DNA of 64,000 nucleotides. Origin: Chiloscyllium plagiosum. Lineage: Eukaryota. The translations under genes and the position numbers were made by a program. The number at the start of each line of letters is the position of its first letter. Position 1 is the first letter of the stretch. A model generated the notes under the pieces. It was not told where the DNA came from. It ran no database searches and was given only the letters and a program-made list of their open reading frames with translations. The stretch is taken from assembly GCF_004010195.1 (NCBI RefSeq), contig NC_057718.1, forward strand, positions 40,358,712-40,422,711, read 5' to 3'. Of this stretch, positions 5,940 to 32,670 are shown one piece after another.

Positions 5940-8710
5940 AGTCAGAGTTGTACAGCATGGAAAAAGACCCTTTGGTGTAATTCGTCCATGCCCACCACAT
6001 ATCGTAAATTAATCTAGTCCCATTTGCCAGCATTAGGTTCATGTTCCTCTTAAAACCTTTCTATTCATGTACCCATCAAGATGCCTTTTAAATATTGTAG
6101 TTTTACCAACCTCCATCACTTTCTCTAGCAACTCATTCCATACTTATGTCACCTATGTGTGAGAAACTTGCCTTGTATGTCCCTTTTATATCTTTCTACA
6201 CTCACCTTAAACCTATAGTGGGTGGCACAGTGGTTAGCACTGCTGCCTCACAGCGCCAGAGACCCAGGTTCAATTCCCGCCTCAGGCGACTGACTGTGTG
6301 GAGTTTGCACGTTCTCCCCGTGTCTGCATGGGTTTCCTCCGGGTGCTCCGGTTTCCTCCCACAGTCCAAAGATGTGCAGGTCAGGTGAACTGGCCATGCT
6401 AAATTGCCCGTAGTTTTAGGTAAGGGGTACATGTAGGGGTATGGGTGGGTTGCGCTTCGGCGGAGCGGTGTGGACTTGTTGGGCCGAAGGGCCTGTTTCC
6501 ACACTATAAGTAATCTAACCTAATCTACTCCTTTTAGTTTTGGATTCCTGTACCCTGGTGAAAATTGTTGGTTATTCACTTTATCCATTCTCCTCATGAT
6601 TTTATAAATCTCTATATAAGGTCACCCCTCAACCTTTGACACTCCAGAAAAGATAGCCCCAGGCTATTTAGCCTCTCCCTATAACTCAAATCCTCCAACC
6701 CTGGCAACATCCTCATAAATCTTTTCTGAACTCTTTCAAGTTTTACAACAGCCTTCCTCTAGCAGGGAGACCAGAATTGAACACCGTATTCCAATAGTAG
6801 CCTAATCAATGTCTGGTACAGCTGCAACATGACTTCCCAACTCTTATCCTCAATGCACTGACCAACAAAGGCAAGCATACCAAATGCCTTCTTCACTATC
6901 CTATCTACCTGTGACTCCACTTTCAAGGAACTATGAACCTGCACTCCAAGGTCTCTTTGTTCAGCAACACTCCCCAGGACCTTACCATTAAGTGTATAAG
7001 TCCTGCCCTGATTTGCCTTTCCAAAATGCAGGACCTCCTATTTATCTAAATTAAACTCCCATCTGCCACTCCTTGGCCCATTGGTCCATCTGATCAAGAT
7101 CTTGTTATACTCTGAGGTAATCTCCTTCACTGTCCACTACACCTATTTTGGTGTCATCTGCAAGCTTACTAACCATCTCTTCAATGTTCACTTCCAAAGC
7201 ATTTATATAAATGATGAAAAGCAATGGACCCAGCACCGATCCTTGATGCATGCTGCTGGTCACAGGCCTCCAGTCTGAAAAGCAACCCTCCACCACCACC
7301 ACCCTCTGTCTTCTAGCTTTGACCCAGTTCTGTATTCAAATAGCTGGTTCTCCCTCTATTCTGTGTAATCTAACATAGACTGGTTGGCAATCATGAGGAA
7401 CCTTGTCAGAAGTCTTATTGCCCTCATCAGTCCTCTTTGTTACTCAATCAAATTAGTGAGACATAATTTCCCAAGCACAAAGCCATGTTGACTATCCCTA
7501 ATCAGTCCTTGCCTTTCCAAATAAATGTAAATCCTGTACCTCAGGATTCCTTCCAACAACTTGCCCACCACTGATGTCAGGTTCACCGGTGTATAGTTCC
7601 CTGGCTTTTCCTTAGCCCCATCTTTAAATAGTTGCACCGTGTTTGCCAACCTCTAGTCTTCTGGCACCTCATCTGTGGTTATCAATTATGCAAATATCTC
7701 AGCAAGGGGCCCAGCAATCACTTCCCTTGCTTCCCATAGAGTTCTAGGATACACCTGATCAGGTCCCAGGGATGTATCCACCTTTATTCATATTAAGATG
7801 TCCAGAACCTTCTCCTCTGTAATATGGACATTTTTCAAGATGTCGCTATTGACTTCCCCATGTTTTCTATCTTCCATATCCTTCTCCACAGTAAATACTG
7901 ATGCAAAATACTCATTTAGTATCTTCCTCCATCTCCTGTGGTTTCACTCGTAGGTGCTCTGCTGATCTTTTAATGGCCTTATTCTCTATTTACCCTTTTG
8001 TCCTTAATGTGTTTGTAGAATCCCTTTGGATTCCCCCAACCCTATTTGCCAAAGCTATCTCATGTCCCCTTTTTGCCGCCTTGACCTCCCTTTTAAGTAT
8101 ACTCCTCCTGCCTTTTTTAGGGATTCATGTGATATCTGCTGTCTCTACCTGATATTTGCTTGCTTCGTATTCTTAACCAAAACATCAATTTCTATCGTCA
8201 TCTAGCATTCCCTACACCTAACAGCCTTGCCCTTCAAATTAGCAGGAATATACTGTCTGTTATCTCATTTTTGAAGGCCTACCATTTTCCAATTGTCTCT
8301 TTACCTGCGAACATCTGCTCCCAATCAGCTTTTGAAAGTTCTTGCCTAATGTCGTCAAAATTGACCTTCATCCATTTCAGAACTTCAACTTTTAGATCCG
8401 GTCTACCCTTTTCCATGATCATTGGCCCCAAAGTGCTTCTCTACTGACACTTAAGCAATTTGCCCTCCCTTATTTCCTAAGAGTGGGTCAAGTTTTGCCA
8501 ATTTACTAGTAGGTACAACCACGAACTGCATTAGAAAATTTTCTTATACTCATTTAACAAATTCTTCTCCATCCAAGCCCTTAACACTATGGCATTTCTA
8601 GTCTACATTTGGAAAATGAAATTCCCCTACCATAATCACCCTGTTCTTGCAGATAGCTTAGATCTCCTTAAAAATTTGTTTCTTAATTTTCCACTGACTA
8701 TTGGAGGGGG
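5940..8710 (-). mobile_element. Decayed CR1 LINE ORF2 and 3' end, interrupted by a SINE
   Basis: RT-like ORF pieces at 6759-6944, 7105-7302 and 7440-7649, collinear with the 19323-22390 copy. Confidence 0.92.
6218..6527 (+). mobile_element. tRNA-derived V-SINE (HE1-like shark SINE) nested in a CR1
   Basis: A box TGGCACAGTGG (6223), B box GGTTCAATTCCC (6267), V-domain GTGTGGAGTTTGCACGTTCTCCCCGTGTCTGC...CCTCCCACAGTCCAAAGATGTGCAGG and a TAATCT tail. The CR1 sequence resumes on both sides. Confidence 0.9.
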
Positions 8711-13169: not shown

Positions 13170-13870
13170 TGAGACATTGGCTGATCTATTGGGATGAGGG
13201 GGTAGGGTGCAGGTTGAAAGCAAGAAAAAAAAACCCTCCTACAGACAAAATCAATAACCGGTAACACTTGACTTGCCGTACGTGAGTGATGTTTGTTTTG
13301 GAGAGACGCCACATCTGTGCTATAGCAGCCCACCTTGCAGTCCCCGGCAATGGGTAGATCCCGGTGCAGGAACTGCCGCCTGCTCTTCATGTTGGTGATC
13401 ACTGCCGGCTTCTTCGTGGTCGAGCTGGTGGTCGGGCACATGGGCAACTCCCTGGCGCTGGTGTCCGACTCCTTCAACATGCTGTCCGACCTGATCTCGC
13501 TGGTGATCGGCCTGCTGGCGGCCACCCTCGGCAAGATCACGAGGCACCCCCGCAACACGTACGGCTTCGCCCGGGCCGAGGTGGTGGGCGCGCTGGCCAA
13601 CGCCGTCTTCCTCACCGCTCTAACCTTCACCATCCTGGTCGAGGCCATCATCCGCCTCATCCGGCCCCAGAGGATCGACGACGTGGAGCTGGTGCTGATG
13701 GTGGGCGCCCTCGGGCTGGCGGTGAACATCATCGGGCTCATCCTCTTCCAGGACTGTTGCTTCAAGAGACAAGTGTCCGGCAGCCCCACAGGTGCCTGAC
13801 GGTTTCTAGTTCAGAAACTAAAACGTGAAGGTCGCCTGGGGCCAAGTGCCTCCCCATTGACCAGGTTGGC
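13170..13870 (+). promoter_or_regulatory. CpG-island-like promoter and first exon of SLC30A10, with inverted CCAAT boxes and an RCGTG element
   Basis: Sharp rise in GC and CpG. ATTGG at 13176 and 13188, TACGTG at 13279-13284. Confidence 0.6.
13350..13791 (+). CDS. SLC30A10: SLC30A10 (ZnT10, Mn exporter of the CDF family) coding exon 1
   Basis: ATG in good Kozak context (gcaATGg). Protein MGR...CRLLFML...DSFNMLSD...TYGFARAEVVGAL...LFQDC has Asn43, which is diagnostic of ZnT10 (ZnT1 has His). Donor ACAG|GTGCCT is phase 1, with an in-frame stop just after it. Lies next to EPRS1 as in human. Confidence 0.95.
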
Positions 13871-19322: not shown

Positions 19323-22300
19323 GAGTCATAGAGTCACAGAGATGTACAGCATGGAAACAGACCCTTCGGTCCAACCTGTCCATGCTGACCAGATATCCCA
19401 AACCAATCTAGTCCCACCTGCCAGCACCCGGCCCATATCCGTCCAAACCCTTCATATTCATATACCCATTCAAATGCCTCTTAAATGTTGCAATTGTACC
19501 AGCCTCCACCACATCCTCTGGCAGCTCATTCCACACATGTACCACCATCTGCGTGAAAAAGTTGCCCCTTAGGTTTTTTTTATATCTTTCCCCTTTCACC
19601 CTAAACCTATGCTCTCTTGTTCTGGACTCCCCGACCCCAGGGAAAAGACTTTGTCTATTTATCCTATCCATGCCCCTAATGATTTTGTAAACCTCTATGA
19701 GGTCACCCCTCAGCCTCCGACGCTCCAAAGAAAACAGCCTCAACCTGTTCAGCCTCTCCCTGTAGCTCAGATCCTCCAACCCTGGCAACATCCTTATAAA
19801 TCTTTTCTGAACCCTTTCAAGTTTCACAACATCTTTCTGATAGGAAGGAGACCAGAATTGCATGCAATATTCAAACAAGTGGCCTAACCAATGTCCTGTA
19901 CAGCTGCAACATGACCTCCCAACTTCTGTACTCAACACTCTGACCAACAAACGAAAGCATACCAAATGCCTTCTTCACTATCCTATCTACCTGCGACTCC
20001 ACTTTCGAGAAGCTATGAACTTGCACTCCAAGGTATCTTGTTCAGCAACACTCCCTCGGACCTTACTATTAAGTGTATAAGTCCTGCTAAGATTTGCTTT
20101 CCCAAAATGTAGCACCTTGCATTTATCTGAATTAAACTCCATTTGCCACCTCAGCCCATTGGCCCATCTGGTCCAGATCTTGTTGTAATCTGAGGTAACC
20201 CTCTTCGCTGTCCACTACACCTCCAATTTTGGTGTCATCTGCAAACTTACTAACTGTACCTCTTATGCTCGCATCCAAATCATTTATGTAAATGACAAAA
20301 AGTAGAGGGCCCAGCACCGATCCTTGTGGCACTCCACTGGTCACAGCCCTCCAGTCTGAAAAACAACCCCCTACCACCACCCTCTGTCTTCTACCTTTGA
20401 GCAAATTCTGTATCCAAATGGCTAGTTCTCCCTGTATTCCCCCATGATATCTAAGCTTGCTAATCAGTCTCCCATGGGGAACCTTGTCGAATGCCTTACT
20501 GAAATCCATATAGATCACATCTACCACTCTGCCCTCATCAATCTTCTTTGTTACTTCTTTAAAAACCTCAATCAAGTTTGTGAGACATGATTTCCTCAGT
20601 CAGTCCTTGCCTTTCCAAATACGTGTACATCCTGTCCCTCAGGATTCCCTCCAACAACTTGCCCACCACTGAGGTCGGGCTCACCGGTCTATAGTTCCCT
20701 GGCTTGTCTTCATTGCTCTTCTTAAACAGTGGCACCACGTTTGCCAACCTCCAGTCTTCCGGCACCTCACCTGTGACTATCGATGATACAAATATCTCAG
20801 CAAGAGTCCCAGCAATCACTTCTCTAGCTTCCCACAGAGTTCTCGGGTACACTTGATCAGGTCCTGGGGATTTATCCACTTTTAACCATTTCAAGACATC
20901 CAGCACTTCCTCCTCTGTAATCTGGGTCCTTAATATATTTGTAAAAACCCTTTGGATTCTCCTTAATTCTATTTGCCAAAGCTATCTCATATCCCCGTTT
21001 TGCCCTCCTGATTTCCCTCTTAAGTATACTCCTACTTTCTTTGTACTCTTCTAAGGATTCACTCGATCTAGCCTGTCTATACCTGACATATTCTTCCTTC
21101 TTTTTCTTAACCAAACCCTCAATTTCTTTAGTCATGCAGCATTCCCTATACCTACCAGCTTTCCCTTACACCCTGACAGTAAGGGTTCTTGTTATCTCAT
21201 TTCTGAAGGCTTCCCATTTTCCAGCCATCCCTTTACCTGCGAATATCTGTTTCCAATCAGCTTTCGAAAGGTTTTGCCTAATATCATCAAAATTGGCCTT
21301 TCTCCAATTTAGAACTTCAACTTTTAGATATGGTCTATCCTTTTCCATCACTATTTTAAAACGAATAGAATTATGGTCGCTGGCCCCAAAGTGCTCCCCC
21401 ACTGACACCTCAGTCACCTGCCCTGCCTTATTTCCCAAGAGTAGGTCAAGTTTTTCACCTTCTCTAGTAGGTACATCCACATACTGAATCAGATAATTGT
21501 CTTGTACACACTTAAGAAATTCTTCTCCATCTAAACCTTTAACACAATGGCAGTCCCAGTCGATGTTTGGAAAGTTAAAATCCCATACTATAACTACCCT
21601 ATTATTCTTACAGATAGCTGAGTTCTCCTTACAAGTTTGTTTCTCAATTTCCCTCTGACTATTGGGGGGTCTATAATACAATCCCAATAAGATGAACATC
21701 TCTTTCTTATTTCTCCGTTCCACCCAAATTACTTCCCTGGATGTATTTCCGGGAATATCCTCCCTCAGCACAGCTGTAATGCTATCCCTTATCAAAAATG
21801 CTACTCCCCCTCTTCTTTTGCCTCCCTTTCTATCCTTCCTGTAGCATTTGTATCCCGGAGCATTAACTGCCAGTGCTGCCCATCCCTGAGCCATGTTTCC
21901 GTAATTGCTATGATATCTCAATCCCATGTTCCTAACCATGCACTGAGTTCATCTGCCTTCCCTGTTAGGCCCCTTGCATTGTAATAAATGCAGTTTGATT
22001 TATTAGTCCTACCTTGTCCCTGCCTGCCCTGACTGTTTGATTCACTTCTGTTCTCAGCTGTACCCGTCTCAGATCGATCTCTTTCCTCACTATCTCCCTG
22101 GGTCCCACCCTCCCACCTTACTAGTTTAAATCCTCCCAAGCAGTTCTAGCAAATTTCCCTGCCAGTTTATTAGTCCCCTTCCAATTTAGGTGCAATCCGT
22201 CCTTCTTGTACAGGTCACTTCTACCCCAAAAGAGCTTCCAATGATCCAAAAATGTGAATCCTTCTCCCATACACCAGCTCCTCAGCCATGCATTCATCTG

Positions 22301-22390
22301 CTCTATCCTCCTATTCCTGCCCTCACTAGCTCGTAGCACTGGGAGTAATCCAGATATTACTACCCTTGAGGACCTCCTTTTTAAATTTCT
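19323..22390 (-). mobile_element. Long, young CR1-clade LINE: ORF1 SGNH-esterase C-terminus (22121-22390), ORF2 APE endonuclease (21166-21939), frameshifted RT (19408-20906) and 3' tail
   Basis: ORF1-like ...FLDHWKLFWGRSDLYKKDGLHLN. Endonuclease motifs YYRPPN, DFNFPNIDW and SDHN. RT motifs PGPD, NYRPVS, DFSKAFD, GVPQGSVLGP and FADD. Has frameshifts and an internal deletion near 20925, and is cut by the gap. Confidence 0.95.
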
Positions 22391-23024
22391 NNNNNNNNNN
22401 NNNNNNNNNNNNNNNNNNNNNNNNNNNNNNNNNNNNNNNNNNNNNNNNNNNNNNNNNNNNNNNNNNNNNNNNNNNNNNNNNNNNNNNNNNNNNNNNNNNN
22501 NNNNNNNNNNNNNNNNNNNNNNNNNNNNNNNNNNNNNNNNNNNNNNNNNNNNNNNNNNNNNNNNNNNNNNNNNNNNNNNNNNNNNNNNNNNNNNNNNNNN
22601 NNNNNNNNNNNNNNNNNNNNNNNNNNNNNNNNNNNNNNNNNNNNNNNNNNNNNNNNNNNNNNNNNNNNNNNNNNNNNNNNNNNNNNNNNNNNNNNNNNNN
22701 NNNNNNNNNNNNNNNNNNNNNNNNNNNNNNNNNNNNNNNNNNNNNNNNNNNNNNNNNNNNNNNNNNNNNNNNNNNNNNNNNNNNNNNNNNNNNNNNNNNN
22801 NNNNNNNNNNNNNNNNNNNNNNNNNNNNNNNNNNNNNNNNNNNNNNNNNNNNNNNNNNNNNNNNNNNNNNNNNNNNNNNNNNNNNNNNNNNNNNNNNNNN
22901 NNNNNNNNNNNNNNNNNNNNNNNNNNNNNNNNNNNNNNNNNNNNNNNNNNNNNNNNNNNNNNNNNNNNNNNNNNNNNNNNNNNNNNNNNNNNNNNNNNNN
23001 NNNNNNNNNNNNNNNNNNNNNNNN
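22391..23024. other. Assembly gap (634 N)
   Basis: Run of n characters. Confidence 1.
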
Positions 23025-23669
23025 AACAAGTGGCTTCCTCCATTCAAGTGTACTGAACTCATGTGTTAGAATTGTAGTTAGACTAAACCTAGCATAAAAA
23101 CACTTGAATTAACAAATCCTAAGTATTTTTTTAAATGACATTTAAAATTATAGGGAAACAACTCTCTGGCATGGGAAGAAACCTTAACTTGTGCAAGTAG
23201 GAAGTCTCGTTTCTTCAGCTTTTAATGATGATTGACATTTTTTAGAAGACATTAATTATTTGTATCTTATCCCATGACTCTTACCTTTCTCTTTAAGTGA
23301 AATTTTTTTTTCTCTCTCTCTCTACTTCACTTCTTGTACCTGACATGATGTGGAATTTACTATTCTGCCATTAGTGATTCTTCGTGAAGGAGCTACACAG
23401 TTAGTTATCTTCCTTATTCACACCAATCCCCTACATCTGGCACTGCGAATTTCAGTCGTGGTACTCACTGCAGCGTACTGTGCAAAAATAAAACCCCAAG
23501 TGGGGCTGGGGCTGGTGGGGGAAGGCTCTGTGCAACTGGCGGGTCTTAGTGAACGGCGAGTGGCTCAGCTGGCCCATGGCACTGTCCTGGGGGTGGGGGC
23601 GTGGTTCGTTAACGCTGACATTTAAACACTGGAGCGAACCGTTCGCCATCCTAAAGACGTTTCACTCAC

Positions 23670-23766
23670 TTATCAGGGCGGCGTTCGTGGTTTCTTTGCG
23701 AAAGCGGAATTTCTTAAGCTTTTCCAACAGCTGTTCGTCGACGCCACACAAACTCACTGGACAGCT
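23670..23766 (-). pseudogene. Orphan glia maturation factor (GMF, ADF-H family) exon 2: [32 protein letters not shown]
   Basis: Manual translation of the minus strand aligns without gaps to the GMF N-terminus ([32 protein letters not shown], recalled). Acceptor CCCCCAG and donor A|GTGAGT are intact. 97 nt, phase 0 to 1. GMFB versus GMFG cannot be resolved, and no downstream exons were found. Confidence 0.85.
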
Positions 23767-24045
23767 CTGGGGGTGGGGGTACACACAAGACAGCCCGTTT
23801 CAAACAAAAAAATAACGACAAGAGCAAAGATAGACATTGCGCAAAAACCCACCCCTCGGCCAATCTTACTTCAAATCTGATTTTGAAAAATCACGGCGTG
23901 TCTGGTTTTAATGCGGATTTCCACACCACCCTCCGGAAAACAGAACAACAACCGACTGAGGAAAACAACTTGAGTGTTTTATTTTTAGGCCGTGCCGCCG
24001 CCGCCACCTCCCTCCAGGCCGGCCGTCTCCCCGGTGACGGGGCCC

Positions 24046-24136
24046 TCTCTTCTCTCTTCTCTCCTCTCTCCTCTCTCCTCTCTCCTCTCTCTTCTCTCCT
24101 CTCTCCTCTCTCCTCTCTCCTCTCTCCTCTCTCTCT
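24046..24136 (+). repeat. (CTCTCCT)n polypyrimidine micro/minisatellite
   Basis: About 12 copies of a 7-bp unit. Confidence 0.95.
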
Positions 24137-24154
24137 GTCCTGCATTGTCCTCAC

Positions 24155-24370
24155 CATGTGCGTCCTTTGTCTGCTCTTCTCCCTTTTAAACTGCTGTTGT
24201 TTTGACTTTTTTTACCAAAGTTCCAAAACAATGCAACAACATATAAAACAGTAATTGCTGCTCCTGGAATTCAAGGAAATCACCTCCAACACTTAAAAAA
24301 CCTCAAAAAAAGGAGCAGCTCTTACAGCCAGAAATTTTTCCCGTTCTCCATTTTGGATTACCCAGAATCC
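24155..24370 (-). other. Candidate first exon ending in ATG|GTGAGG, or the 5' UTR of a LINE
   Basis: The minus strand begins GGATTCTGGGTAATCCAAAATGGAG (YY1-like) and has CACATG|GTGAGG at 24157-24149, in phase with the GMF exon 388 nt downstream. Confidence 0.4.
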
Positions 24371-27147
24371 TATTGATAGTATTAACGAATACATTTTATT
24401 CATTTTGTAATCAATGAGACTCCATAGATGGTGAATGAATTGAACAGGTATTTGCATCAGACTTATCCCAGTAATTGTGGTAAATCAGCAAATGGAAGGG
24501 AGCACTTCAAGAAAATCACAATCACTAGATTGTGTGAATTTACTCGGTAATTGTTAGAGCTACAGGCTGACAAGTCGTTGGTCCTGATGAACTTCACCTT
24601 TGGGTTAATGAGATAGATAGTACCTTAGTATAATTTTCTAAAATTCCCTAGATTTGGGAAAAGCTCCTTTAGATTAGAAAATAGCAACTATAACTCTTTT
24701 TAATAAAAATGGAAGGCGATAGGAAACAGAAAAATATAGGCCAATTAGCTGAGCATCTTCATAAGAAGATGCTGGATATTATTATGAAAGATGTTATATC
24801 AGGGTACTTAGAAAAAAATTAAGGTAATCAGGCGGAGTCAACATAGTTTCCAAAGGGATATCATATTTAATGAACTTATTGGAGTTGTTTGAAGAAATAT
24901 CATGTGCAGTAGATGAAGGGAAACTGGAAACAGAAAGTGTGCCATAGCGATTCGGTTGTGATTTATATTAGATTAGATTCCCTACAGTATGTAAAGAAAA
25001 TAATTTTAAAAACTTTTCATAGTTTATATGTTCCATTTTGAGCTATTGAATGTAAATAATGATCAAGCATTTTTTTTTTCTTTGTACTCTGTAAGAATCA
25101 AAGAGCTGTTGAGTTAGATGTTGTACAGAAGTCTGTCTGTCAAATTGGAAGTGAACCCCTTACCAAGGAACAACTGTATTTCCATTTCTTACACAAATAT
25201 TAGCGTATAACTTTGCTTTCACCTGGATTTTGCCTGACGTTTCTGTTTTTGTAAGCATTAAACCTATTGATTGCAAATTTCTGCCCTCTAACCTTACCTG
25301 AAGTCATTAGCATCTCACTGAAAAATATTTCTGGAAGCGCTGTTGGGTGTTGAAAACCTCATGCAAGAGACCTGTATTCACATTCAAACGTTGACTGTTA
25401 TTTGGTTAGTTTAACAGAGGGACATCACAACTAAACTTGATTTTGACTGGACCAGATATCCTTGTTCTCCCTCAGGTATCAATAGGTAACAATCAGGAGT
25501 TAGAATCCTGGCTAGTTTCTCAGGAGGGCAAGATTAATTATAGCTTCCATACCAACATATCAAATGAAATCAGCTAATTCAGTACAGACCAAGGATTATA
25601 ACCTTGTTCTTTATTCTTTGTATGCATCAACTACTCACTCGATTTTTAACAATGAATTTTTAAAAATTTAGTGTCAACGAGAAGAATGTTTTAAATTTCA
25701 GAGAACAGGAAAGGCCAAAACAATATTGTCTGTTTATCATGATGATCATTATTATTCATTTGTTGCATGACTTTTTCCAATACATCTCACATTATTGTGC
25801 TAAGTAAAGGAGAAAATGAAGACTTTTAAAAATTCCCTTCAAAAGTGTTCCAATACTTTAAGATTAAAGTAACATGGTATTCTAATATGTTTGACTTGGG
25901 GCAGTCTGAACTGTTAAACAACCCAGCGACACTGTAATCTGTCACTTTTAAAGTGAGCTGTGAACCGCTATGGGGAATGTTCATTTGGCTTCCTTGGTGC
26001 ACTATCAATTTATTATTGCAGATCAGATAAAAGTGCTTACAATATCCTCAAGTGCCTTCTTCCATGACACTCGTGAGAAAAACAAGTTAGAAGAAAAGCA
26101 TTTTGATGTCAATGGTAAAAATGAAACAGAAATTATTTGCTGATAATATGGTGAAATGAGGGCAGTTTTTCCCTCAGATGAAAATGTTTGAAAGTTTTTA
26201 TGAGACTATTATAGATATACTCCCTAACTTTTGCCATGACAGAGAACCTCCGCTCTGTGACAAAAGTGGTTGACAATGTCAGAAATTTTACTTCACCTTC
26301 CCCACTCTTGAGGGTAGGTTTGGGCCTGTGACATTTGCTGAGGCAGCTGGTCCTTTAAGTATTCACCCACCTCCACTCAGATTATTTGATTTTGGAATCG
26401 CTGGTGTCTGAAAACCAGAGTGTGGAGATCAATTAAGAACAAATCTGTTTTTAGTGCATTTGTTTTGGGTAGCTGTGTATTACTTTGGAGTGGAGAGGTT
26501 CCCAGGATATCTTGGGAGTGCTGAACTGTTAGCAATAGTTTACAATTCATAGGTTTTCATTTGTCTTACATAGGTAAGTCTAAGAGTCCTTCAGTACTAC
26601 ATAATAATAACAGGAGTGTTGTCTGTGTTTCTTGGCCACTATTTATCCCTTAACCAACATGACTAAAACAAATTGCTTACTAATTATTCTCATAGTACTT
26701 TGTGGAACTGCGTTCTAGAAGCAGTACAGTAAGGGACATTTTAATTTCTTTAATTTATCAAAGGAATTGCTAATTGCTTTTAAGAATATGTGAAAAAGAC
26801 TCAAGAGTTAGCATGAAGCATAAAGGGATGATTTGTAGTTTTCTTGGATCATAAGAAATGCTGGTCCATGTCCCCGAGCAATACTTGACCTGGCAACAGT
26901 ACCAACAAGAAGGAAGTGAAGATGCAAAGACCACATGGCCAAACACAGAAGCCAGACAAAGAAGCTACTGCTGTGAAGGCAGAAGGTGACAGGTACACCA
27001 ATACAGAAACAAAGAGAAAGCAGACAGAGACCAAAAGAGGAGCATATTGAATTATTGTAAAGAGAATAAGTGAATGTTTCTCAGGAAGCAGTTAGTTTTT
27101 CTGAATGGTAGACAGGGAGATGGGAGTTACTGGGGACACTCTCTGAG

Positions 27148-29600: not shown

Positions 29601-30547
29601 GAAAGCTTATTCTCTCCTCTCAGTCTGTTTGGAAATAGTCTGCTCTCCAGAGAGCTGCACCTGTCTACTAGTCCACTCTGACTTGTGGGCCTGTAGGTCG
29701 GGGAGCAGCAGTTGTTTTTGGTGCAGCTCCTGCTGCTCATGATGTTTCTGCTGGTGCTCATCTTGGTCTTCATTTGCATTCTATACAATGCGGCTTCAGC
29801 AGAAAGCTTTTGAATATTCTCGATTGGAGTTCCAAAATGCAGATCAGACCTCCAAGTGTAAATGGTACCTGCAAAATGCTGTCTCAGCACAAATACTGTA
29901 TACAAACCTCTTCCATGCAAGCAGTAGAAGAACCCTGAGTGTTAAGTATGTATTGGCATATTTTCCTAACACGGCTTCAGCCCCTTCAATTACTGCTCTC
30001 GTGCTGCTTTCTCTAGCAAGTTCTAAAAAAGCCCACATACCTGAGTTAAAGTCCAGCATCCACATAAATATTGTTGCAACTGAGAAGTTAACGTAATGAA
30101 ATTAACATCCCGTCTCCCTGAAGGAACCTGTTTGGACACTGCCCAGAACTGCAGTAAACTGTGAAAGACAAAGGTTTGGAGCAGGCATCTAAGGTTGGCT
30201 CCTGCTTTGAATGAAATATCTGCTTCCCCCTGACCCTGTACCTGAACCCAAAGCTATATGCTCACCCGCATTAAAATTCCATTTTCTGTCTGAATTAAAC
30301 ATGGGATTGGATGGTAGATCGGCTGATGCAGTGTACTGGAGGAACATGCTTCACTGAGTTCAGCAAGTCTTTCCTAACCTGTTACATTTTCAGTGCAGCA
30401 CTAGAGTGAATCCATGCCAGATCACAATTACATTACATATAAAAGGGTGGAATCAGTTTAGACGATCATCGATCAATGGCTAATGTTATACACTGATTTT
30501 CTTGTATATTATAATAATTAAATCTCTCATAAATACCTCTGTCCTAG

Positions 30548-30787
30548 GTGTTTTTCTACATGTCATGGGCGATGCATTAGGATCTGTGGTGGTGGTCGTC
30601 GCTGCTACTATATTCTATATACTTCCACTTAATGAAGATGAATTCTGTAACTGGAAATGCTATGTAGATCCAAGTATGACAATCATTATGGTTATAATAG
30701 TTCTATTATCTGCTTTCCCACTCATAAAAGAAACAGCAGTTATCCTGCTCCAGATGTTACCCAGAGGGATCAAACTGCATGAATTTG
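30548..30787 (+). CDS. SLC30A10: SLC30A10 exon 3: VFLHVMGDALGSVVVVVAATIFYILP...CNWKCYVDPSMT...LLQMLPRGIKLHEF
   Basis: cctag acceptor and GTAAGT donor. 240 nt. Contains the TM5 HxxxD motif (LHVMGD). Confidence 0.96.
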
Positions 30788-32670
30788 GTAAGTGAATCTA
30801 TTTACTGTGTAAGCTTAATTAACGTTTGTTATGGCTTGGAGGTTTTGTTAAGATCGGCAAAGCATATCCCAAGCATAAGGAAAAATTACTCTTTTTGTGC
30901 CCCGGGTTTAATACTTCATGCCATATTTAGTCAGCTTCAAGTTGCCTGACGTTAAACTAACTGAAAAAAACATTGAAGAAATATTCTGAGTAACATTCAG
31001 TTGACTGTTTGATACCTGTCTCACCAGAGATGACGAAGTGAACAGGAACATAAAGTAATATGTTTAATACAGTCTTATTTTCTGAATTAAATATCTACAT
31101 TACAGTAATCACCTCAAATTCCACAGTAACTTTGTTTCAAAATTGCAAGGATACATCCTTAGCTGTATTTATAATTTTACATCTTCCAGTTCAGCAGTTG
31201 CTTTAATGGACTACATTATATCTCATGTTTTGTGGCATACGTAACAACATAATTAATTAGAGTTATGCTGTCTCAATTTAAGTCCAAATGCTTAATGCAC
31301 CGATAAGGTGAATTTGTTTGGACTCAATGCAAAGAAAAGTGGTCATTTGTTCATTTTCGTACAAAAACAAGATTTCACCTTTGTTCAAGAGTTCAATAAT
31401 CTTTTAATTATCACACTGCTTGAGAAGAGTTGGAAAAGCATGGGCCTGAAAAGCCACAGGGACGTTTATACATAATTCCAATGGGGATTAAAAATTCTGT
31501 CAAGAGTGCATTTAGCAGCAGTCTATTGGAAAGAGAATAAACAGGGGAATTCACCATTAGTTTACTGTAAGAAATATCTGAGAATTACTAGTTTTCCTTT
31601 CTTCCCAATTTTCTAGTGTCCACATGAAATCATTGTTGAAATTTCAAAAGCCTGTCGCTTAACACACATTCCAGGAGTTAAACATGTAAATGTGTGTGGC
31701 ACTTTAGTGCCAGACTCAAGGAATGCTTCAGTCTAAAAAGTGCTGTTTTTTTGGATGAGACATTAAGTGGAGGCCTTGCTTGCATGTCAGCTACAGCAGC
31801 AACTGAAACTTACATTTGTGTAGTGTCTTTAAGGTGAGGAAATACCCCACGGGCATTCTCCAGGAACATGTTAAAACCAAGTATGAAACCGAGCCACATA
31901 AGGAGATATTAGATCAGGTGATTGAGTCAGCTTGGTCAATAAAGTAGATTTTAGGTAGTACCTTAAAGGAGGAAAGCAAGGTAAGTATAAAGTTAGCATT
32001 CCAGAGCTTGGAGTGTTGGTGTGGCTAGCAGTGGAGTTGTAGGCAACAGCAACTGAATGTGGAGTGATTAAAATTATGGATAGAGGCCAGAATTAAATGA
32101 ACCCAGGGTTGTGCAGCTGCAGAAGATTGCAGCGATATCAAGGAGTGAGTCCAAGGAGCGACTTGAGAGTAAGATAACAATTTAAATTATTATTCCATAT
32201 GCATGTATATTATACAGACACTCGTGTGCCAGCCTCTGAGAACCCTCATGGCACATCTCTGATTCACTTACAAGACACTTCTGCACTTCAATGCTGCTCT
32301 CGGGCTGCACTTGCAATTATTATTGTAGCAAGGGCACACTGTGCTCGGACACACCCAGTTCAGGGACTGGACCAGGCTGCATCTGTGGCCTGTTCACTTG
32401 CTGTCATAACACTCGCTCACTCTGAGCCTGCCTGGATGTTCACAGCATTCTTGCCTTGCATTGGATCTTTTGCGCTTTGCCCCTTCAGCCAGTGATACCA
32501 AATTCATATCACTGCTGTTTTGCCTTGCCGTTTTGTATAGATATAAGTTAGGAATTGTCATCATTGTCAGCAGATTTCAAGGGAAATAGCCTTTGCCTTT
32601 GGAGGAGAGAATGTTTCTCTTGGCTCCCATATCAATTACTCTGAGATCAACTACTTTATGTGTCCACCTG

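Follow-up and report, generated by a model that had tools for sequence, protein, structure and literature searches.

Our results support a reading in which the fragment of a glia maturation factor (GMF) gene in the 64,000-nt stretch analysed here (the window) is very probably an assembly artefact, either a chimeric contig end or a misplaced piece of the alternate haplotype. Several features that lead to this verdict were observed directly: the near-identity of the fragment to part of the GMFB gene on C10, its boundaries at a gap and a microsatellite, the two halves of one LINE on its outer sides, the intact gene on C10, and contigs from other samples that pass unbranched through the C10 breakpoints. 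The absence of the other GMF exons from the window and an allelic single-nucleotide difference lead to the same verdict. The join itself would have been made by the assembler or a gap-closing step and not in the animal. In the course of events that we favour, an SLC30A10-like gene has in one of its introns a young full-length minus-strand LINE, whose 5' interior of about 1 kb would have defeated the assembler and been left as a gap. To the right of it, the next contig would then open with about 1.04 kb from GMFB on C10 (the last part of intron 1, then exon 2 and the beginning of intron 2), most likely from the other haplotype of that gene, and low-complexity CT/GA stretches present at both loci would have served to link the piece to the LINE. 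Nothing would be expressed or captured at the window locus, and the organism would have one GMFB gene, on C10, and one GMFG-like gene, on C41.

The exon itself is as the preliminary description had it, a 97-nt exon on the minus strand at 23766-23670 with an acceptor and a GTGAGT donor. Read from the sequence, its AG and GT sites are intact and its frame is open. Written on the minus strand with a slash at each splice junction, it runs ...acccccacccccag/AGCTGTCC...CTGATAA/gtgagt; a second excerpt of the same stretch reads acccccacccccag/AGCTGTCCAG...GCCCTGATAA/gtgagt. It translates into 32 residues (codons 2-33, with one base left over) and is identical to C10:47323210-47323306. The claim that it encodes a GMF N-terminus was borne out by comparison with proteins of known structure, in which the peptide matched GMFG and GMFB entries in PDB with E values of 3.4e-7 to 2.2e-6, including GMF-gamma (3l50; E 3.4e-7) and GMF-beta (1v6f; E 4.4e-7). 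When a 40-codon segment of the window was used as the query against a large protein collection, 8 of the 14 candidate proteins reached E<=0.01, every one of them carrying PF00241. The top named matches were a catshark 'Glia maturation factor' (97%) and ray GMF-beta (88-91%), and shark GMF-gamma matched at 72%. Judged by sequence similarity, the assignment of the peptide to the N-terminus of GMF is far beyond chance. Since the homologues start MSCPVSLC, the window exon is coding exon 2, following an exon that ends in ATG. A whole-genome search with the Pfam Cofilin_ADF profile returned four places, neither the window nor GMFB on C10 among them, GMF exons being too short for the profile.

No other GMF exon lies in the window. 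A tblastn search of the window with five GMF proteins found exon 2 alone, its other matches having E>=0.1 and being scattered over both strands with none colinear, in agreement with the earlier report that further exons were not to be found. Sequence from intron 1 and intron 2 flanks the exon on its two sides, with no exons fused, which rules out a processed pseudogene, as had already been argued. A start-codon exon upstream of exon 2 is likewise absent from the window; on C10 the ATG exon lies 42-48 nt past the end of the shared piece. Because the homologues start MSCPVSLC, the motif cacATG/gtgagg at window position 24157 was at first taken for GMF exon 1. We rejected this candidate: the string 'GCACATGGTGAGGACA', which resembles an ATG exon and donor in the window, is the consensus of the LINE 5' end in all five copies inspected, and exon 1 proper, on C10, is flanked by sequence unlike that around the window motif. 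Within the LINE 5' end, beside the misjoined piece, window 24149-24157 reads ATGGTGAGG, a 9-mer that is also the sequence of the true GMFB exon 1 end and donor on C10 (L008 647-655), a coincidence that could lead gene prediction to a complete-looking first intron.

The exon had been called an orphan, a description that no longer holds, as a near-identical parent locus exists on C10. When window positions 23430-24050 were compared with the same genome, both of the two scored places were identical over all 621 bases, one being the window itself on C9 and the other C10:47322970-47323590. In blastn and pairwise alignments, window 23025-24056 agrees with C10:47322565-47323596 at all but 2 of 1032 positions, the exceptions being 23187 (A in the window, T on C10) and 24051 (T and C, respectively). 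The whole match extends over window 23025-24066 and G000:C10:47322565-47323604, and it fades inside a low-complexity run by window 24066-24073. Other sequence common to the window and 40 kb of C10 is interspersed repeat, at 65-92%. In the copied part (23025..24044, minus strand), exon 2 stands between the 3' stretch of intron 1 and the opening 645 nt of intron 2. It begins at 23025, the first base past a run of Ns, and its far end lies inside a CT/GA microsatellite at 24045-24141. The outcome that the preliminary description had set beforehand as its own refutation, that 23025-24045 is part of the true GMF locus elsewhere, with the wrong join lying between gap and GA microsatellite, is essentially what we found.

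The parent gene is complete. A whole-genome protein search together with tblastn of five GMF proteins placed residues 2-142 of GMF colinearly on the minus strand of C10, the same strand as the window piece, and the gene (G000:C10:47311939-47323654) has seven coding exons with a CDS of 429 nt, encoding 142 amino acids and containing no internal stop. Its exons lie at 47323654-652, 47323306-210, 47321229-180, 47320822-773, 47319394-312, 47316845-772 and 47312010-47311939, with boundaries set by eye from the sequence and with intron 4, an AT-AC intron, outside the GT-AG rule. The protein is identical to a ray GMFB at 129 of 142 positions and to shark GMFG at 90-92 of 142. The window exon and the intron sequence around it are the same as at exon 2 of this gene. 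Unlike the gene, however, the window piece holds one of the seven coding exons, has no start codon, promoter exon or downstream exon, and lacks a complete ADF-H domain, containing nothing of it past the first 32 residues.

The host of the piece is a gene on the opposite strand. Pfam identified Cation_efflux exons on the plus strand at window 13383-13745 and 30490-30750. The corresponding SLC30A10-like exons, at 13326..13796 (residues 1-138) and 30484..30792 (residues 237-319), have SLC30A10 as their best PDB match (E 2.8e-52 and 4.8e-35), with SLC30A1 well behind for the same two exons (1.3e-31 and 2.5e-17). As the host exons are on the plus strand and the piece is on the minus strand, the piece lies antisense in an SLC30A10-like intron, which upholds the original placement as far as gene and orientation go.

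Within this intron, the immediate surroundings of the piece are those of a repeat. The only run of Ns in the window is an assembly gap of 634 N at 22391..23024. To its left, reaching the gap edge, lies a LINE body (20135..22390, minus strand) with an endonuclease at 21948-21169 and a reverse transcriptase at 20599-20135, matched on the minus strand by the Pfam profiles Exo_endo_phos (AP-type endonuclease; 4.3e-9) and RVT_1 (6.8e-17). With these two domains the repeat is a minus-strand LINE, and the high-copy repeat at 24142..24372 (minus strand), to the right of the microsatellite, is its 5' end. Both parts are abundant in the genome. About 212 bases to the right of the microsatellite gave at least 3740 first-look candidates, with 40 scored copies elsewhere at 94-96%, and the 691 bases to the left of the gap gave at least 6486, with 39 other scored copies at 94-95% over their full length. 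Read along the minus strand, the window therefore has the LINE 5' end first, followed by the microsatellite, the GMFB piece, the gap and finally the LINE endonuclease and reverse transcriptase.

The two LINE parts occur in the same order and orientation in five of ten fetched copies, separated by 644 bp (L024), 755 bp (L023), 994 bp (L030), 997 bp (L025) and 1007 bp (L027). The GMFB piece and the Ns thus occupy the place of about 1 kb of LINE interior, and nothing resembling the GMFB piece occurs in any of the ten fetched copies. Exactly where the array lies in the window, LINE copies carry a (TC)n, (TCAC)n or (TTTC)n microsatellite. The LINE is young and apparently full-length, and the assembly breaks within it both at the window and at a further copy, L021, in which a run of Ns abuts the same internal microsatellite.

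The CpG-rich block that had been described at 23430-24370 is real but shorter than claimed. Window 23430-24045 has a GC content of 0.53 and a CpG observed/expected ratio of 0.87, against 0.18-0.32 in adjoining DNA, and the rest of the block is the microsatellite at 24045-24141 followed by the LINE end at 24142-24372. The microsatellite, in which the identity to C10 ends, has the unit CTCTCCT (period 7, 14 copies) and is the counterpart of the internal microsatellite, variable among copies, in the 5' region of the LINE. The retained CpGs had been offered as a hint of a recent or unmethylated origin. They need no recent capture to explain them, the piece being, letter for letter, the promoter-proximal CpG-rich part of GMFB on C10.

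Independent sequence data bear on the C10 side of the comparison. We aligned four public runs with the same organism label, three of contig type and one of raw reads, to the C10 locus (L005:600-2700), on which the breakpoints of the shared piece lie at 1096 and 2127-2141. One of these runs may be the assembled sample itself. Both breakpoints are crossed in the C10 arrangement by Logan contigs in all three contig-type runs, which represent three samples from two studies. In run X3 a single 5803-nt contig (record 17) covers the whole stretch; in run X15 contigs cover 879-1770 and 1809-2212 (records 11 and 14); and in run X1 (records 1 and 3) the span 600-2125 lies in a 4938-nt contig and 2096-2194 in one of 99 nt and depth 2.2, which bridges the right breakpoint with only 31 letters on one side. 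No loose ends occur at either breakpoint among the 14 listed (two further ones lie beyond the list). Contigs of this kind stop wherever the word graph branches, and passage without a branch therefore speaks against a second junction in the animals sampled, although rare variants are dropped from contigs. With about 4 in 100 sampled from the raw-read run, X19, only four reads were placed, and contig word depths were flat within each contig.

The same runs account for the only clean difference between the window and C10. At L005 1258, which corresponds to window 23187, X1 and X15 have A, the window letter, and X3 has T, the C10 letter. As both letters are read at the C10 locus, the difference is a segregating allele of GMFB, and the simplest reading is that the window piece is the other haplotype of that gene. 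The GA run at the right breakpoint is also length-polymorphic between samples. At three positions (L005 1040, 1087 and 1845, or C10:47322509, 47322556 and 47323314) the contigs of each of the three samples disagree with the C10 reference; these are private alleles or else errors in the assembly consensus. Just beyond the left breakpoint, outside the shared piece, lie position 1087 and a difference at 1095 confined to X1.

Misassembly had been listed beside capture and a nested gene as possible origins, and it is the only one of these that our results favour. The main competitor is a real and very recent duplication at the DNA level, in which at least 1 kb of the GMFB locus entered a LINE in the SLC30A10-like intron, either fixed or private to the sequenced animal and with its left junction hidden in the gap. 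The bases across the right junction are contiguous in the assembly, and 2 differences in 1032 mean that the piece is no literal copy-paste of the C10 contig. If the duplication were true, it would offer a snapshot of exon shuffling by LINE-associated capture of DNA or pre-mRNA in a cartilaginous fish, with GMFB exon 2 and its CpG-rich flanks, at about 0.2% divergence, landed in the orientation of the LINE. Like an exon-carrying segmental micro-duplication or gene-fragment capture, the window has an unspliced gene fragment at an unlinked locus; unlike one, it has no supported junctions, its boundaries coincide with assembly features, and contigs of other samples give no sign of a second copy. 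We consider a duplication improbable, as one end of the piece is exactly at the gap edge and the other is in a microsatellite, the piece takes the place of about 1 kb of absent LINE interior, no branch occurs at either breakpoint in contigs of three samples, and the distinguishing letter at 23187 is an allele that segregates at the C10 locus.

A variant in which template switching during retrotransposition copied GMFB pre-mRNA into a chimeric element would fit the shared minus orientation of piece and LINE and the unspliced state of the piece, as expected of pre-mRNA. The position of the piece between the LINE 5' end and the endonuclease region would nonetheless demand two switches, none of the ten other LINE copies examined contains it, the sole other place in the genome that has it is the GMFB gene itself, and its divergence of 0.2% is far below the 4-6% among LINE copies, so that we regard this route as very improbable indeed. 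A functional third GMF gene, nested in the intron, whose other exons would fall inside the gap or at another place in that intron, could draw on the intact splice sites and open frame, but it is effectively ruled out: exons 3-7 are absent from the window in every frame, the ATG exon 1 lies outside the copied piece, which stops short of it on C10, the ATG/GTGAGG at 24157 is LINE consensus, and the introns are identical to GMFB introns. An artefact of assembly, the reading we prefer, shares most of its features with known chimeric contig ends and misplaced haplotigs of scaffolded draft assemblies, namely near-identity to a single-copy locus elsewhere, boundaries at an N gap and low-complexity sequence, a setting within a repeat of high copy number too hard for the assembler to resolve, the other allele of a SNP that segregates, and outer flanks that belong to one LINE, which runs on without the piece in five of the ten fetched copies. 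It differs at the join, where no long exact word is common to both loci, and the mechanism is a presumed one. This lack counts against it, as do the following: C10 has a short GA run of period 5 and the window a 97-bp array of period 7; the gap and the piece together make 1676 bp, more than the roughly 1 kb of LINE interior that they replace; and in X1 the right breakpoint is bridged by a contig of 99 nt and depth 2.2.

For biology little is at stake, with no third GMF gene and no exon capture to propose. The practical consequences concern annotation and read mapping. The position should be flagged as a local misassembly, lest gene predictors call a spurious antisense GMF fragment in SLC30A10, and reads from GMFB exon 2 would otherwise split between two places, halving the apparent coverage or expression of that exon. 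The case is also a worked example of how gap edges in young LINEs of this assembly can hold foreign single-copy sequence.

Further observations concern the GMF genes themselves. A 5.3-kb run of Ns at L008 4451-9716 (C10:47327450-47332715) lies about 3.8 kb upstream of GMFB exon 1, so the promoter neighbourhood of GMFB on C10 is itself incompletely assembled. A second GMF paralogue is found at G000:C41:1745122-1758900 (L014, L015 and L019), with exons 58-60% identical to a GMFB-like query, and is presumably GMFG. Finally, intron 4 of GMFB on C10 (C10:47319395-47320772; L007 about 6396-7773) is an AT-AC minor intron, atatcctt...aaccac, its ends reading atatcctt...ttttttaactctaaccac, of U12 type. 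In human GMFB, intron 4 has been given as a minor intron with the 5' site ...atatcc (PMC7244321). The shark and human genes have a minor intron 4 at the same position, which would be conservation from cartilaginous fish to human.
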